A DNA stretch of 64,000 nt from Candidatus Methanomethylophilaceae archaeon. Lineage in GTDB: Archaea; Thermoplasmatota; Thermoplasmata; Methanomassiliicoccales; Methanomethylophilaceae. The notes beneath the pieces were generated by a model, which saw nothing but the letters and a program-made list of their open reading frames with translations, was not told the DNA's origin and did not search any database. Below, in pieces: positions 3,787 to 17,152 of this stretch (within the stretch, counting starts at the first letter, position 1; each line of letters starts with the position of its first letter). Both the position numbers and the translations under genes were made by a program. The stretch is from the NCBI GenBank assembly GCA_944320495.1, contig CALUHR010000013.1, positions 256,001 through 320,000 on the forward strand. The letters are read 5' to 3'.

Positions 3787-4172
3787 GCTACGACCTCCTC
3801 CCCGTCGACGGTGATCGGCGCGACCCTGTCTATCAGGGCCTGGAGGTCCTCATCCTCGATGGTCACCTCTATCGCCCCCAGGACGGGGTTGCGGTCGGCG
3901 AAGGAGATCTTCCCGACGGTGGCGACCTGCTTGTTCAGCATCAGCCTGGTGCGGTTCCCCCTCATGTTGGAGATCATCACGGCGCGAGTGGCGTCCAGGA
4001 TGCGCTGCCTCCTGATCTGCTTCGAGAAGTGGTCCAGACCTGGGGCGGTGCCCCCGTACGCTCCCTCGCCGAGCTCCATGAAGGCGTCCGGGAATATGGA
4101 CATGACCGCCGAGAGGACCTTCTCGGGATCCTCGCTGGGGTTGACGGGGCATGAGATGCTGACTTGGACCAT
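3783..4172 (-). CDS. UPF0201 family RNA-binding protein
   Basis: VNPSEDPEKVLSAVMSIFP...QRILDATR...LNKQVATVGKISF. Confidence 0.85.
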   Translation of the reverse strand: MVQVSISCPVNPSEDPEKVLSAVMSIFPDAFMELGEGAYGGTAPGLDHFSKQIRRQRILDATRAVMISNMRGNRTRLMLNKQVATVGKISFADRNPVLGAIEVTIEDEDLQALIDRVAPITVDGEEVVA

Positions 4173-8880: not shown

Positions 8881-10269
8881 TCACTTCTTCGGCAGGTACT
8901 TCTCGATGTACTTGCGGTCGATCCTGGTCAGCTGGTCGAGGTCGAGCTCGGTGAAGATCTCCCATCCGATATCGAGGGTCTCCTCGATCGAACGGTCCTC
9001 GTCGATGCCCTGGCGGACGATGCGGTCCTCGAAGATGTCGGCGAAGTCCAGGAGCTTCCTGTCCTTGGCGGAGAGGGAGTCCTTTCCGACGATGGCCACG
9101 AGTCCGCGGAGGTCCTTACCCTCGGCGTAGGACGCATAGAGCTGGTCGGAGACCGCCTTGTGGTCCTCACGGGTCTTGCCCTTTCCGGTTCCGCCTCCCA
9201 TCAGCCTGGACAGGGACGAGGAGACGTTGACCGGCGGGTAGATACCGTTCCTGTGGAGCTCCATCGACAGAACGATCTGACCCTCGGTGATGTAACCGGA
9301 GAGGTCGGGGATCGGGTGGGTGATGTCTCCGCCGGGCATGGTCAGGATGGGGATCTGGGTGATGGAACCCTTCTTGCCCTTGATCCTTCCCGCACGCTCG
9401 TACAGCTGGGCGAGGTCGGTGTACATGTAACCGGGGTAACCGCGCCTTCCGGGCACCTCCTCACGGGCCGCTCCGATCTGACGGAGGGCCTCGCAGTAGT
9501 TGGTGATGTCGGTCATGATGACCAGCACCTGCATGCCCAGGTCGAACGCCATGTACTCCGCGGTGGTGAGACCGAGACGCGGGGTGAGGGTACGCTCGAC
9601 GGCGGGGTCGTCGGCGAGGTTCAGGAAGACGACGGCGTTCTTCAGAGCGCCGGTCCTCTCGAACTCCTTCATGAACATCTGCTTCTCTTCGTTGGTGATA
9701 CCCATGGCGATGAACACCACAGCGAACTCCTCGTTCTCGCCGCGGACCTTGGCCTGCCTGGCGATCTGAAGGGCCATCTCGTTGTGGGGGAGACCGGACT
9801 GCGAGAAGATCGGCAGCTTCTGTCCCCTGACGAGGGTGTTCATTCCGTCGATGGTCGAGATTCCCGTCTGGATGAAATCGGACGGGCTGTCCCTGGCCCA
9901 CGGGTTGATGGCGGCTCCGGTGATGTCGACCTCCTTCTCGGGGACGATCCTGGCTCCGCCGTCGAGGGGCTCTCCGGCTCCGGAGAGAACCCTTCCGAGC
10001 ATGTCCTTGGAGACGGGCATCTTCATGGTCTCGCCGAGGAAGCGAACGGACGCATCCCTGTCGACACCGGAGGTGCCCTCGAAGACCTGGACGACGACGA
10101 TGTCGTTGGACGAGTCGAGGACCTGTCCCCTCCTCATGGTACCGTCGGACATCCTGATGTTGACCATCTCGTAGTAACCGACGGGCTCGGTGTTCTTGAC
10201 GTACACCAGAGGTCCGGCGATCTGGGAGATCGTCTTGTACTCTTTGGATACTTCTGCCATGTGAATCAC
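8881..10269 (-). CDS. atpB: A/V-type ATP synthase subunit B
   Basis: [23 protein letters not shown]; [19 protein letters not shown]. Confidence 0.98.
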
Positions 10270-11996: not shown

Positions 11997-12302
11997 TTAT
12001 TCATCCTCTGATTTGTATAAGTCAACTCCAATCGCTCTCTTCACCTTCTCACGGAGATCGCTCTGATCCCCTCCGACCGGCACGACGACGGGCTGGATCG
12101 AATCCATGACCCTGTGCCTGACGGCGAAAGAGAGGTTGTCCAGATCCTTCGCGTCCACTGCGAGGATACCGATGTTGGGCTGGGACATCGCCTCCAGCAT
12201 TTTTTCCTGGTAGTTGTCTTTCTCAGCAACGAAGACGCGCCTGATACCGGCGAGCCTGAAGCCGAGCACGAACTCATCGCTGCCTATTACTGCGATCTCC
12301 AT
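11997..12302 (-). CDS. atpF: A/V-type ATP synthase subunit F
   Basis: MEIAVIGSDEFVLGFRLAGI...KVKRAIGVDL. Confidence 0.96.
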   Translation of the reverse strand: MEIAVIGSDEFVLGFRLAGIRRVFVAEKDNYQEKMLEAMSQPNIGILAVDAKDLDNLSFAVRHRVMDSIQPVVVPVGGDQSDLREKVKRAIGVDLYKSEDE

Positions 12303-13366
12303 CGGATCACCAGCAACCCTTTGATGGTGTCTGCGTCCAGTCCGCTCTCCACTCCCCTCGAGATGGTCCTGATGTTGCTGACCTCGATCTCCTTGTGGAT
12401 CATGTAGTCGATGATGGGGACCACCGACAGGGGGTACATGTGGGAGAACTTGTTCGCGGCGGCGATCTCGTACTTCTTCATCTCGGTGACGACCTCCCTG
12501 ATGCTCACCTTGTCGGATTCCACGAGTCCCTTGATGGAGTCGTAGAATTCGAGGCGGGACAGGTCGGAGGACGCGGCGGCGATGGTCTCCGCGTTGGCGA
12601 GCTGAGTCGCGTAGCGGGTGTCGATCTGCCTTCCCCCGGGGATGATGTACTTCATCACGACCTCGCCGTGGATCCCCTCCGCCTTGAGCTTGAGGATCGT
12701 CTCGAGGTTCTTGATGTCGATCTCCGTCCTGACGTAGTCCTGGAACATCCTGGTCGGCCTGGAGGTGGGGTTGATGCTCTTGACCAGCCTCACGTAGTGG
12801 GCCTTGTCCAGGTAGTCCTCGATCTCTCCCAGGTTCCCGGTCGACTTGTAGGTCGAGATGACGTCCTGGGGGATCGTGATGTGTTCCATCTTGTCGTAGT
12901 TCGCGATTATGTCTTCCACACTGTCGAGCGAGAGCAGCTTCTCCAGAGACTCGGAGTCCAGACTTCCGGCGGGGACCAGGTCCTCCCTGATTCCCTCGGG
13001 GTCAAGTCCGTACGACTTGCCGCGCAGGATGACCTTCAGGTTCCAGATGTCCCACTTCTCGAGGTACGCCTGGACCATGCCCTTGAGCTCTCCCTGGGAG
13101 GCCTGCAGGATGCTGCTGAACACCTTCGCCATGTTGGTGTAGGTGGCGTGCTCCACGAGGTCCATCCCCTCCAGCCTGCCGGCGAGGTCGGTCATCTCCT
13201 TCTGATAACCGGACTCGCTGATGTAGCGGGAGATCTCCGGGACGCTCATGAGCAGCATCTTGTTGTAGTCCTCGTCCTTGAGGAGAAGGGCCTTCTTGGC
13301 CTTCACCCTGGACACGGCATACGCGTAGTTGCCTGCCCTTCCGCTGCGGTTGAACATTGCTCTCAC
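12302..13366 (-). CDS. atpC: A/V-type ATP synthase subunit C
   Basis: GNYAYAVSRVKAKKALLL...DIWNLKVILRGK. Ends ...KGLLVI-CGA(12304-12302), overlapping the atpF ATG by 1 nt; standard-code end 12287. Confidence 0.95.
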
Positions 13367-14201: not shown

Positions 14202-16274
14202 TTACGCGTTGGTTGAAACTGTTTTCTTGCGTTTGATTGCGAGAGGCTCAAACTCGATTCCTCCGCCGTCGAAGAACTTGGCCATGAACTCCACGTACTG
14301 CAACCTGAGACCGTGCAGACCGGCGGAGATGATAGCCAGAGTCCAGATCATAAGATGGCCGAAGGCGATCATGATCAGGCAGAACACCAGACCGACGATG
14401 CTTCCCTCGAATGATCCAGTTCCCGCGGTCGCGTCCCAGACATAGCCTCCGAACATGTCGATGGCGATGTAGTTGAACGCGAGCGCCATACCCGCCTTGG
14501 ACATACCGATGGCAGCCAGACGAGCGTATGAAAGGACGTTTCCGATGATTCCGGGCAGCTCCAGGATAGCCTGCGCACCCTCGTGGCGGTTCAGGACCGT
14601 TCCGACGATGATCAGGACGATACCGAGGATGATGCACACCAGGTCAACGGTCATCAGGCCCGACTCGAGCCAGAAGATAAGGTAGTTGGCGAGTCCGTAG
14701 CACATGAAGACGATTCCGAGGAAGGCGAGCAGCCAGCCGCCCTTCTCCATGAACGCGTGCTTGAATCCGTGCTGGATCGTCTTGTTGTAGATGGCGCATA
14801 TGTACCCCAGTGCGAGGTGCACGACACCGATGTAGACGGTCAGCTTCATCAGGAAGCCGATCCACTCGGCACCGATCTTGCTGACTCCGTGGCCCTCGGG
14901 CAGGAACGAGAAGAAGCCGGCGATGGCCTCGTGGTTGAGACCCAGCAGCTGCTCCCATGTATGGGTGACTCCATCAGTCGGGATGCCGACGAAGTGCATT
15001 CCGAGGCATTCTCCGAAGAAGAAGAATCCGAAGATGAATGCCCATATTCCTCCGAAGAAGAACACGGTGGCGATTGCGCGCCAGTCTTTGTGGTGCGTGA
15101 CCTTGAGGCCGTACGCTCCAAGGATTATGAACGGGATTGCATATCCCACGTCTCCGACCATGAACCCGAAGAACAGGGGGAAGAAGATGGCGATCAGGAT
15201 GGAAGGGTCAATCTCCTGATACTTGGGCACCGACACCAGCTTGGTGGGGTACTCGAACTCCTTCGCGACCACTCCGTTGTTCATCTTGGTCGGCGGTTCC
15301 CTGAACCTCTTCTCGATGTCGTCCACTCCGTCGAGGGACCTGCCGCGGGTCTCCTGGACCTCCACGTAGACGCTCTCGACCTTGGTCTCGAGCTCGTTCT
15401 TGACGAACCCGGCCTTGGACTCGGGCACCCACGCGTCGATCACGAAGGTGTACTCGCTGTTGGCAATCCTGAGGGGAAGCTCCCCTTTCTCGACCTCGAT
15501 GGACAACTCCTCATCGGAGGCTTCGAGGAAATCCGTATACTTCACCATGAGGCTCTCGATATGTTTTCCGATGCTGTCGAGCTCGCTCGTCGCAGCCTCT
15601 TCCTCGCGCGCAATCGCCGTGAGGGCGGCGGACGGGGATCCGGTGATGCCCTCGGGGACGACGATCTCGGAGAAGCCGTGCTCGGCCAGAATGCTCTGGA
15701 CCTTGTCACGGACCTCGTTCCTGGCGAAGACCGCTATGACATTGCCCTCCTTCTTGTCGAAGGAGGAGAAGACCTCCACATCCGCGTTGACGAGGTCTGT
15801 GGAGGGGTCGTCTGCGACGGTGCCGACCATGGAGAATATGCTCCTGTAACCGGAGTACATCTCGAGGTCGATCGGCAGCCTGGAAAGGATTTCGAGATTC
15901 CTCTTGGTAGCGCTTAGCTCGGTGATTCTCTGATTGAGATCATTCCGCCTGTCGAAGACGGCATTAACCTCCGCCTCGACAGTCTCGACGCTGTCAGATG
16001 AAATCTGGCTCTTGATCTCGGCCTCGGGTATGGGGTTGGACTTCACCTTGGGGGTGATGCCGAGTCCCTTCTCCATCGCACGCACCTTCAGCAGCCTCTC
16101 GGATGCCTTAGGCGAGTACGGACGGGAAGTCCCGAGACTGAAACCTTCATCCGCGCCGACGGTATGATCGATCAGGTGGATGGATCCTACATCGTAGATG
16201 ACCTGGATGGCATCGTCGATGTGGGATTTGGCACCCACAATCACAATCCTACTCATCGACTCAGGAAGTGACAT
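14202..16274 (-). CDS. atpI: A/V-type ATP synthase subunit I (a)
   Basis: EIDPS...FFGFMVGDVGY; LSYARLAAIG; HGLRLQYVEF. Confidence 0.96.
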   Translation of the reverse strand: MSLPESMSRIVIVGAKSHIDDAIQVIYDVGSIHLIDHTVGADEGFSLGTSRPYSPKASERLLKVRAMEKGLGITPKVKSNPIPEAEIKSQISSDSVETVEAEVNAVFDRRNDLNQRITELSATKRNLEILSRLPIDLEMYSGYRSIFSMVGTVADDPSTDLVNADVEVFSSFDKKEGNVIAVFARNEVRDKVQSILAEHGFSEIVVPEGITGSPSAALTAIAREEEAATSELDSIGKHIESLMVKYTDFLEASDEELSIEVEKGELPLRIANSEYTFVIDAWVPESKAGFVKNELETKVESVYVEVQETRGRSLDGVDDIEKRFREPPTKMNNGVVAKEFEYPTKLVSVPKYQEIDPSILIAIFFPLFFGFMVGDVGYAIPFIILGAYGLKVTHHKDWRAIATVFFFGGIWAFIFGFFFFGECLGMHFVGIPTDGVTHTWEQLLGLNHEAIAGFFSFLPEGHGVSKIGAEWIGFLMKLTVYIGVVHLALGYICAIYNKTIQHGFKHAFMEKGGWLLAFLGIVFMCYGLANYLIFWLESGLMTVDLVCIILGIVLIIVGTVLNRHEGAQAILELPGIIGNVLSYARLAAIGMSKAGMALAFNYIAIDMFGGYVWDATAGTGSFEGSIVGLVFCLIMIAFGHLMIWTLAIISAGLHGLRLQYVEFMAKFFDGGGIEFEPLAIKRKKTVSTNA

Positions 16275-16593
16275 TTAGGGTCCTCTCGAATTCATTTTTG
16301 AGAAAATCTTTGACTTCCTGCATTTTCGCCTCGGAGCCCTTGGTGAAGGTCTCGGCCTCCAGCCTGCCGGTGGCAAGCATGGACTCGCGCTTGACCTTCA
16401 GGTCGGCGGTCTCCTTGGCGATCGCGGATTCGTAAGAGCTGCGCATCTGAGCCTCAGCGTCCTGAATCTTCTTCACAGAATCCCTGCGGGATTCGGCGAT
16501 GGCGGACTTCTTGTCGGCCTCGGCCTGAGCGACCTTGGCGTCGGCATCCGCCTCCGCTTTCTTAATTTCCGAAAGTATGTCGATTCGGCTCAA
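16261..16593 (-). CDS. atpH: ATP synthase subunit H (peripheral stalk)
   Basis: First gene of the operon; ILSEIKKAEADADAKVAQAE coiled coil. TTG start 6 nt after GGAGTG (alternative GTG 16602). Codon 3 is CGA (see findings). Confidence 0.85.
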   Translation of the reverse strand: MSRIDILSEIKKAEADADAKVAQAEADKKSAIAESRRDSVKKIQDAEAQMRSSYESAIAKETADLKVKRESMLATGRLEAETFTKGSEAKMQEVKDFLKNEFERTLNVTS

Positions 16594-16702
16594 ATTCAAC
16601 ACTCCCCGACCCTAGGAGTTCGTATCTTCTCGCGATACTTAACTATAACCCCCTCCAGAGGGTGCTGGGTGGCGGACGGCACGATAAGAGCCAGACGCTC
16701 CA

Positions 16703-17152
16703 TCATTGGAGATGGAACTGTCTTGTCACAATGTCAGTCTCTTTGAGAAGGCTGTGGGACAGATCGTCGATGTATCCCTCGTCGTAGACGATCTCCCTGA
16801 TTCCCGCGTTGATGAGGATCTTGGCACACATGGAGCACGGGAACGTGGTCGTGTATATCGTCGCCCCGTTCACGCTGACGCCGAAATATGCGGCCTGGGT
16901 CACCGCGTTCTGTTCTGCGTGGACGCCCCTACACAGCTCGTGCCTGGTCCCGGACGGGATGTTCATCTGGACTCTGATACAACCGAGCTCCTCGCAGTGG
17001 CGCGTACCCTTGGGGGAACCGTTGTAGCCCGTGGACAGAACCCTCTTGTCCTTGACGATGACGGCCCCTACCTTCCTCCTGAGGCATGTGGACCTCGTGG
17101 AGACGAGCCGGGCCATCTGCATAAAGTACTCGTCGTTGCTGGGTCTGTCCAT
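16703..17152 (-). CDS. dCMP deaminase / cytidine-deoxycytidylate deaminase (ComEB-like)
   Basis: [29 protein letters not shown] Zn motifs. Confidence 0.93.

Follow-up and report, generated by a model that had tools for sequence, protein, structure and literature searches.

The window analysed here, a stretch of 64,000 nucleotides from a Candidatus Methanomethylophilaceae archaeon, a methanogen of the gut, carries on its minus strand an operon for an A/V-type ATPase, and the features that matter for the present analysis are collected in Table 1. The first gene of this H-I-K-E-C-F-A-B-D operon is atpH, which lies immediately ahead of atpI, overlaps it and has the size expected of subunit H (about 100-110 aa), an arrangement shared by 35 of 41 relatives. 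The eight genes after it were assigned by Pfam to the ATPase subunits I, c, E, C, F, A, B and D. The 110-aa product of atpH itself found no match in a Pfam search, and against the AhaH profile TIGR02926 it reaches 23.3 bits (E = 5.7e-5), which is below the cut-off of 48.5, with residues 7-90 aligned to positions 1-84 of the 85 in the profile; gene order is therefore the main ground for the name atpH. Directly upstream, at 16706-17152 of the minus strand, lies a 149-aa ComEB-type dCMP deaminase of the cytidine-deaminase fold. This deaminase is syntenic with atpH in 30/30 loci of the order, standard-code outgroups included, and is thus a housekeeping gene rather than a genus-specific editing enzyme.

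Table 1. Features of the atpH locus and of related loci elsewhere (plain positions are those of the window; G, C and L numbers denote genomes, contigs and loci of our collection)
Feature	Location	Strand	Remarks
atpH (AhaH-like) CDS	16261..16593	-	110 codons + TGA (16263-16261)
atpH start codon TTG	16591..16593	-	start codon aligned in 30/30 order-level loci
Shine-Dalgarno-like GGGGAG	16602..16607	-	GGAG core ends 8 nt before start; conserved in 30/30 order and 57/57 family loci
in-frame CGA, atpH codon 3	16585..16587	-	invariant Arg position; +4 base A
GTG, atpH codon 40	16474..16476	-	first canonical in-frame start past the CGA, 36 codons on
atpI	14202..16274	-	Pfam V_ATPase_I; 14-nt overlap with atpH 3' end; ATG at 16274
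conserved nucleotide block	16573..16610	-	RBS + start + codons 2-7: GTCGGGGAGTGT..A.TTG AGC CGA AYY GAC ATA CTT
CGA at atpC stop position	12302..12304	-	overlaps atpF ATG (CGATG); in-operon contrast to the atpH CGA
rpl18e	G000 C13:191557-191925 = L108; relatives L119-L148	-	
aRF1	G000 C2:85936-87195 = L105; relatives L149-L178	-	
CGG clade loci	L085, L087, L089, L090, L092		genomes G008, G015, G019, G007, G005

The minus strand reads here gtcGGGGAGtgttgaat and then TTG AGC CGA ATC GAC ATA CTT TCG GAA ATT AAG AAA GCG GAG, with an in-frame CGA as the third codon of atpH. The first-pass annotation of this DNA, made from its letters only, had reported the same reading from TTG to CTT, which was confirmed when the strand was read again, and had argued from the spacing of the ribosome binding site that translation starts at this TTG. 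Our comparison bears this out, as the GGAG lies 8 nt from the start, which is the commonest spacing among the few genes of this genome with an unambiguous start. The order-level set consisted of 30 loci, namely those of this genome, of 18 congeneric ones and of 11 that belong to other families in the order, and in the 29 relatives a TTG, GTG or ATG is aligned with the TTG and a GGGGAG-type site is located 8-9 nt upstream in all. At the family level the start codon is TTG in 50/57 and ATG in 7/57 loci. The assembly was also searched for the 3' end of 16S rRNA, which was not found, and the anti-Shine-Dalgarno sequence was assumed. The further remark that no start follows soon after the CGA is likewise correct, since the next ATG, GTG or TTG is the GTG of codon 40; moreover, a start at that codon would delete the conserved N-terminal ILSEIKKAE segment of AtpH.

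Genes of this genome were called by a home-made codon-bias caller, and a naive call with three stops contains 1340 in-ORF CGAs. Genome-wide, a coding signal is present on both sides of only 13 of these 1340 (1%), whereas the same two-sided test gives 16-48% for CGG, CAA, CCA, TCA, AGA, CTA, ACA and CGT, and in particular 26% for CGG, which has a similar overall frequency. In the strict set, 199 genes lose their coding signal at a CGA, and about a quarter of genes end in this way; for 69 of the 199, the next canonical stop is at least 30 non-coding-like codons away. Furthermore, there are 115 ORFs whose cumulative coding score reaches its maximum 15 or more codons short of the canonical stop, and with CGA scored as neutral and the control codons treated likewise, CGA directly follows this maximum in 29 of them (25%), compared with about 4% expected by chance and with 0-3 cases for the control codons. 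The same tendency can be seen within the window, where the CGAs of well-scoring genes are confined to the last few codons or precede the true start.

The comparison of genomes points in the same direction. The stop position of atpC holds CGA in this genome and in the near-identical G018, and TGA in 17 other genomes, outgroups included. Among about 2700 aligned ATPase codons of the genus, codon 3 of atpH is the sole in-frame CGA, the terminal CGA of atpC aside, while the same genes hold 5 and 15 CGAs in two outgroups. Taken from statistical and comparative evidence, CGA thus appears strongly stop-like in this genome, and our first reading of it as an ordinary rare arginine codon was given up after the positional tests of coding signal. 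As for the other stops, well-scoring genes without a terminal CGA end in TGA (638), TAA (23) or TAG (7).

Codon 3 of atpH encodes arginine in 30/30 order-level loci, where the outgroups use AGA, AGG, CGG or CGA. The first sample of the genus comprised 14 genomes with CGA and 5 with CGG at this codon. For the family, 121 genomes were searched and 57 operons from 19 genera compared, and the codon is CGA in 46/57, CGT in 6/57 and CGG in 5/57, with a non-arginine codon in none. Its presence in 46 of 57 family genomes means that the atpH CGA is no sequencing error, and as the replacements are always arginine codons, Arg3 is selected at the protein level. The tree of aRF1 places the five CGG genomes in one clade with 100/100 support, nested within the genus, which indicates one change from CGA to CGG with arginine kept. 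Moreover, several genera of the family still place CGA at arginine sites inside ATPase genes, and since these genera with sense CGA also carry the CGA of atpH, the latter predates the code change. Over codons 4-110 of atpH, dN/dS is 0.2-0.6 in comparison with 16 CGA-bearing genomes of the genus, and the frame downstream of the CGA is therefore translated. Altogether, the codon-3 CGA of atpH is, as judged from these alignments, a genuine and ancestral arginine codon.

It should be noted that the conservation around this codon extends to the nucleotide level. The block GTCGGGGAG(T/A)GT..A. TTG AGC CGA ACT GAC ATA CTT is conserved in 15/19 genera of the family, and non-preferred codons are fixed in it (ACT in 56/57, ATA in 53/57 and CTT in 54/57) though the GC3 of the genomes spans 0.47-0.89. 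The other columns with a fixed codon in the nine ATPase genes are almost all either preferred codons (TTC, CAG, GAG, AAG) or located in gene overlaps. The conservation of CGA is inseparable from this general nucleotide conservation of codons 2-7, and alone is no proof that the codon is read. An RNA structure which would hold the CGA in place was considered and rejected, as no fold of the block is supported (RNAalifold of the genus gives -2.6 kcal/mol, and the single-sequence z is 0.09 against shuffles) and a search of the block against Rfam gave no match.

Is the tolerance of CGA a property of the first codons? In the first-pass annotation, an arginine reading of CGA close to the start codon was one of three options offered for atpH, and a clustering of internal CGAs in the first few codons was proposed as a check. 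A scan of the genome for CGAs followed by a strong coding signal, with no start within 8 codons, returned atpH as the sole 5'-proximal case in 1.77 Mb, and a second scan that required an upstream start with a ribosome binding site added three ambiguous ones, in all of which an ATG follows 1-5 codons past the CGA. The frequency of CGA in the ATPase genes of outgroups is 2.4-5.6 per 1000, and by our own arithmetic a sense-like usage predicts some 30-70 CGAs in codons 2-10 of about 1450 genes. The first codons are as depleted of CGA as the gene interiors, and genome-wide no clustering is seen beyond atpH. In the window, the 5'-proximal CGAs of the ORFs at 4164, 28151 and 36781 are located in non-coding-like heads upstream of the true starts. 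Similarly, the longest ORF of atpB begins with a GTG at 10269 (minus strand), while alignment with relatives puts the true start at the ATG at 10260; the three codons between the two starts hold a CGA in three genomes of the genus and a TGA in one, and the apparent codon-3 CGA of atpB in those three is an artefact, the true start being the ATG three codons later. A rule of near-start tolerance was consequently rejected, because atpH is the only case and the other conserved CGAs are found at about codons 30 and 78. The arginine half of that option is supported, with Arg invariant, and the start-proximity half is not.

These other conserved CGAs belong to rpl18e and aRF1, and like that of atpH they occupy arginine sites. 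In rpl18e the in-frame CGA (ATC TGG CGA GAC, about codon 30) is present in 29/30 genomes, standard-code outgroups included, and the longer motif ATC TGG CGA GAC AT. GCG is frozen at the nucleotide level in 29/30 genomes across the order. In aRF1 it is the ORF's codon 88 (about 78 when counted from the likely start) and lies inside eRF1 domain 1; the site is CGA in 22/23 genomes of the genus, and outgroups have CGC, CGG, CGT or AGA. In G005 this site of aRF1 is AAG, and a CGA is found at query position 35. One further candidate in-frame site is found in this genome only, at C13:193618-194700 of the minus strand (L107), where one in-frame CGA links a SIS-domain ORF to the ORF of a HAD phosphatase. 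The HAD motif AVFIDRDG begins directly past this CGA and no start codon occurs for 44 codons, so that the junction represents either a fusion by read-through or a gene lacking a start. Another candidate, at C13:340630-341001 of the minus strand (L109), was set aside as uninformative, being an orphan ORF of this genome only. It has 123 codons, a good coding score and a CGA at codon 26, with no homologue in 40 relatives, even G018, and may be recently acquired DNA or no gene.

The base following CGA (+4) was also compared between the two kinds of sites. After the 199 terminator CGAs of the strict set, T is the most frequent base (56%), ahead of G (20%), C (17%) and A (7%), while at the in-frame CGAs it is always A in atpH, G in rpl18e, C in aRF1 and G at the SIS-HAD junction. 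This contrast is only suggestive, with four sites, p of about 0.03 by our own arithmetic and 44% of the terminator CGAs lacking the T, and the T excess is partly due to CGATG overlaps. As to the whole codon after the terminator CGA, it is TCG in 26/199 (forming the palindrome CGATCG) and TGA in 14/199.

A tRNA able to read CGA is also encoded. The presence of tRNA-Arg(UCG), which the first-pass annotation had suggested to check, was established with ARAGORN at C13:413317-413390, outside the window. Its acceptor and anticodon stems show compensatory changes among at least 19 genomes of the genus, and the tRNA is therefore maintained, not decaying. Its arginine identity elements are presumably the A of the D-loop, which we placed at position 20 by eye, and C35. 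In all genomes of the genus that have the atpH CGA, A39 of this tRNA stands opposite C31 or A31, which leaves an anticodon stem of 4 bp. By contrast, a regular pair (C31-G39 or U31-A39) is present in six other genera of the family and in the outgroups from the order. In the CGG clade, the anticodon loop of this tRNA is CCUCGAC, with C33 replacing the universal U33, plus A37. It is tempting to tie the type of tRNA mechanistically to the codon of atpH (A39 with CGA, C33 with CGG), but this is weakened by the fact that the CGG clade retains the in-frame CGAs of rpl18e and aRF1, and the association is accordingly one phylogenetic event and not proof of mechanism. The release factor has changed as well. 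In the tree of aRF1 the stem branch of the genus is very long, at 0.77 changes per site, and 21 substitutions are specific to the genus. Several of them adjoin the NIKS and YxCxxxF motifs; thus an S has become A immediately ahead of NIKS, an R has become M six residues past it, and a T has become A immediately ahead of YRCDSTF.

Based on these results, we consider it probable that CGA is a codon of dual meaning in this genus and that codon 3 of atpH is read as arginine by tRNA-Arg(UCG) in competition with aRF1. Three properties expected of such a codon are found together, namely a terminator role at many genes by statistical and comparative evidence, conserved in-frame sense sites with selection downstream (atpH, rpl18e and aRF1), and an encoded, maintained tRNA able to read CGA. 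A clean reassignment from sense to stop, as in NCBI tables 2, 22 and 23, does not describe this genome, where the tRNA is retained and three in-frame CGAs are conserved. The CGA of atpH had been presented as the main evidence against CGA being a stop, but it does not overturn that model; it makes of CGA a codon of dual meaning where a clean stop had been assumed. In fact, the second of the options offered for atpH, a leaky or ambiguous CGA, is the best supported one, in view of the invariant arginine, the kept tRNA and the few conserved CGAs, all at arginine sites.

In terms of mechanism, aRF1 would outcompete the tRNA at most CGA sites and the gene would end there, and the retained tRNA-Arg(UCG) would still be able to insert arginine. 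We infer that this tRNA reads the CGA of atpH, and that it does so often enough to supply the subunit, and full-length AtpH would be produced whenever it decodes CGA as arginine. The CGA probably persists because the block of ribosome binding site, start codon and first seven codons, frozen since before the code change, resists substitution, and because an early abortive termination is presumably cheap next to one deep within a gene: a stop after two residues would release Met-Ser, and the message would be re-initiated. However, if read-through were rare, an essential stalk subunit of two copies would be made inefficiently, and from a TTG start.

An alternative is that the atpH CGA is a selected regulatory device, in which the ratio of aRF1 to charged tRNA sets the passage of ribosomes past codon 3 and tunes AtpH, possibly the whole operon by translational coupling, to the condition of the translation machinery, together with the CGAs of aRF1 and rpl18e. 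It is attractive in that the three in-frame CGAs conserved across genomes are all in core genes, that the leader and first seven codons of atpH are fixed at the nucleotide level in 15 genera with non-preferred codons, and that the CGA of aRF1 is derived in the genus, a pattern which fits a feedback control of the prfB type. On the other hand, the CGAs of atpH and rpl18e are older than the code change and hence were not installed for regulation, one clade swapped the CGA of atpH for CGG with no visible compensation, and the site is without RNA structure or known motif. We regard this alternative as unlikely. A more specific form, which we offer as a speculation with somewhat less confidence again, is that the three CGAs constitute a small regulon of programmed read-through sites, decoded solely by a re-tuned tRNA-Arg(UCG) with its 4-bp stem, so that the level of release factor and the production of ribosomes and of the ATP synthase stalk would be coupled to the aRF1/tRNA balance, with the frozen leader of atpH as the sensor.

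Another explanation, which seems quite improbable, supposes that C-to-U editing of the mRNA turns CGA into a UGA stop, and that the sites in atpH, rpl18e and aRF1 escape by their context and are read by tRNA-Arg(UCG). Editing would account for the retention of an intact tRNA-Arg(UCG) and for the bias in context, T being the +4 base of 56% of the terminators and of none of the four in-frame sites. But no candidate for a genus-specific editing enzyme was found, the deaminase upstream of atpH being rejected for this role by its ComEB type and its synteny across the order, and the long stem branch of aRF1 with its 21 substitutions near codon-reading motifs points rather to a changed release factor. 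We know of no C-to-U mRNA editing of the CGA-to-UGA kind in archaea.

Could CGA after all never be a stop here, but merely a very rare arginine codon, at which the atpH site would be trivial? The existence of tRNA-Arg(UCG) agrees with this, the rarities in gene cores are similar (per 1000, CAA 0.26, TTA 0.07 and CGA 0.13), and many of the terminal CGAs soon reach a canonical stop, so that the short extensions would be harmless. Such a view is nevertheless highly improbable, since the coding signal ends exactly at CGA far above chance, 69 of the 199 terminator CGAs are followed by at least 30 non-coding-like codons, a two-sided coding signal accompanies 1% of CGAs against 26% of CGG, and the genus has no CGA in the ATPase genes besides atpH codon 3, where outgroups have 5-15. 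Finally, the proposal that the codon-3 CGA terminates efficiently and that AtpH arises by re-initiation, from a non-canonical ATC, ATA or ATT (as in the third option offered earlier, a start at ATC or ATA after a mini-ORF) or from the GTG of codon 40, can hardly be credited, for although re-initiation after a Met-Ser mini-ORF is conceivable in a compact operon leader and ATA at codon 6 is conserved, the 36 codons past the CGA contain no ATG, GTG or TTG, the ATC of codon 4 is not conserved (ACT in 56/57 genomes), ATA is just as well kept when CGG or CGT stands at codon 3, the ribosome binding site is spaced for the TTG, Arg3 is replaced only by arginine codons, and a start at codon 40 would lose a conserved N-terminal coiled-coil segment, covered by the AhaH model from residue 7.

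It is instructive to compare the dual-meaning CGA with known systems. An arginine codon ends genes also in organelles, as with AGA and AGG, which serve as stops in vertebrate mitochondria (NCBI table 2). Those organelle cases, however, concern genomes of roughly a dozen genes that lack the cognate tRNA, whereas here the cell is free-living, the tRNA is kept and in-frame sites are conserved. The gene prfB is known for a +1 frameshift at an in-frame UGA. Like the CGA in aRF1 of the genus, it is a case of an in-frame codon, read by a release factor, which is kept in an essential gene and must be bypassed (reviewed in PMC5009743). The atpH site differs from prfB in that it does not encode a release factor, its CGA is ancestral rather than installed, and the frame is unchanged without frameshift.

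Ambiguous codes of stop and sense have been described for Condylostoma magnum and Parduczia (PMC4967479) and for Blastocrithidia nonstop (PMC12153298). As proposed here, one codon both terminates and encodes in these organisms, and the competition of release factor and tRNA decides. In Blastocrithidia this involves a changed eRF1 and a tRNA with a 4-bp anticodon stem (PMC12153298), to be compared with the unpaired 31-39 in tRNA-Arg(UCG) of the present genus; tRNAs with such stems have also been surveyed in bacteria (PMC13092985), and in Blastocrithidia and some bacteria they reportedly improve the reading of stop codons (PMC12153298, PMC13092985). The difference is that in these ciliates and Blastocrithidia standard stops became mostly sense, with termination depending on nearness to the mRNA 3' end, while here a sense codon would have become mostly stop, with a handful of sense sites, in an archaeon, where no poly(A)-based context exists, and with a tRNA that is cognate and not near-cognate. 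The codon itself is the same in Saccharomyces cerevisiae, in which eRF1/eRF3 misdecode CGA, eRF1 and tRNA-Arg compete, a tRNA(UCG) of perfect match favours the full-length product, and the eRF1 variants L123R, L123F and L123Y raise termination at CGA (PMC7379694). What reporters reveal in yeast, though, is a weak pathway of error or rescue, whereas here the same codon would end about a quarter of native genes. In the motif whose position we take to be equivalent to yeast L123, the aRF1 of this order has Y-R-C, in the genus and the outgroups alike.

If CGA truly ends genes in the genus, this would be the first change from sense to stop reported in a free-living cell; our search of the literature found no paper on a CGA stop in archaea, and on the position effect of very early stop codons it gave nothing usable. 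The atpH site suggests that such a code change is not clean, as an essential gene would need the arginine reading, the codon would be ambiguous and the kept tRNA would have a role. There are consequences for annotation as well. With CGA treated as a stop, atpH, rpl18e and aRF1 would be wrongly truncated, and under table 11 about a quarter of genes would be wrongly extended or fused. The N-terminal peptide (M)SRIDILSE..., from an abundant subunit of a membrane complex, offers the simplest handle on the meaning of CGA.

One locus of the comparison merits a separate remark. In G095, which is labelled as genus g13, the atpH at L186 is 74% identical to that of the window and has exactly the same leader as that of G011, a genome of genus g1, while the atpH of other g13 genomes is about 53-55% identical to that of the window; the bin of G095 may be misplaced or mixed.
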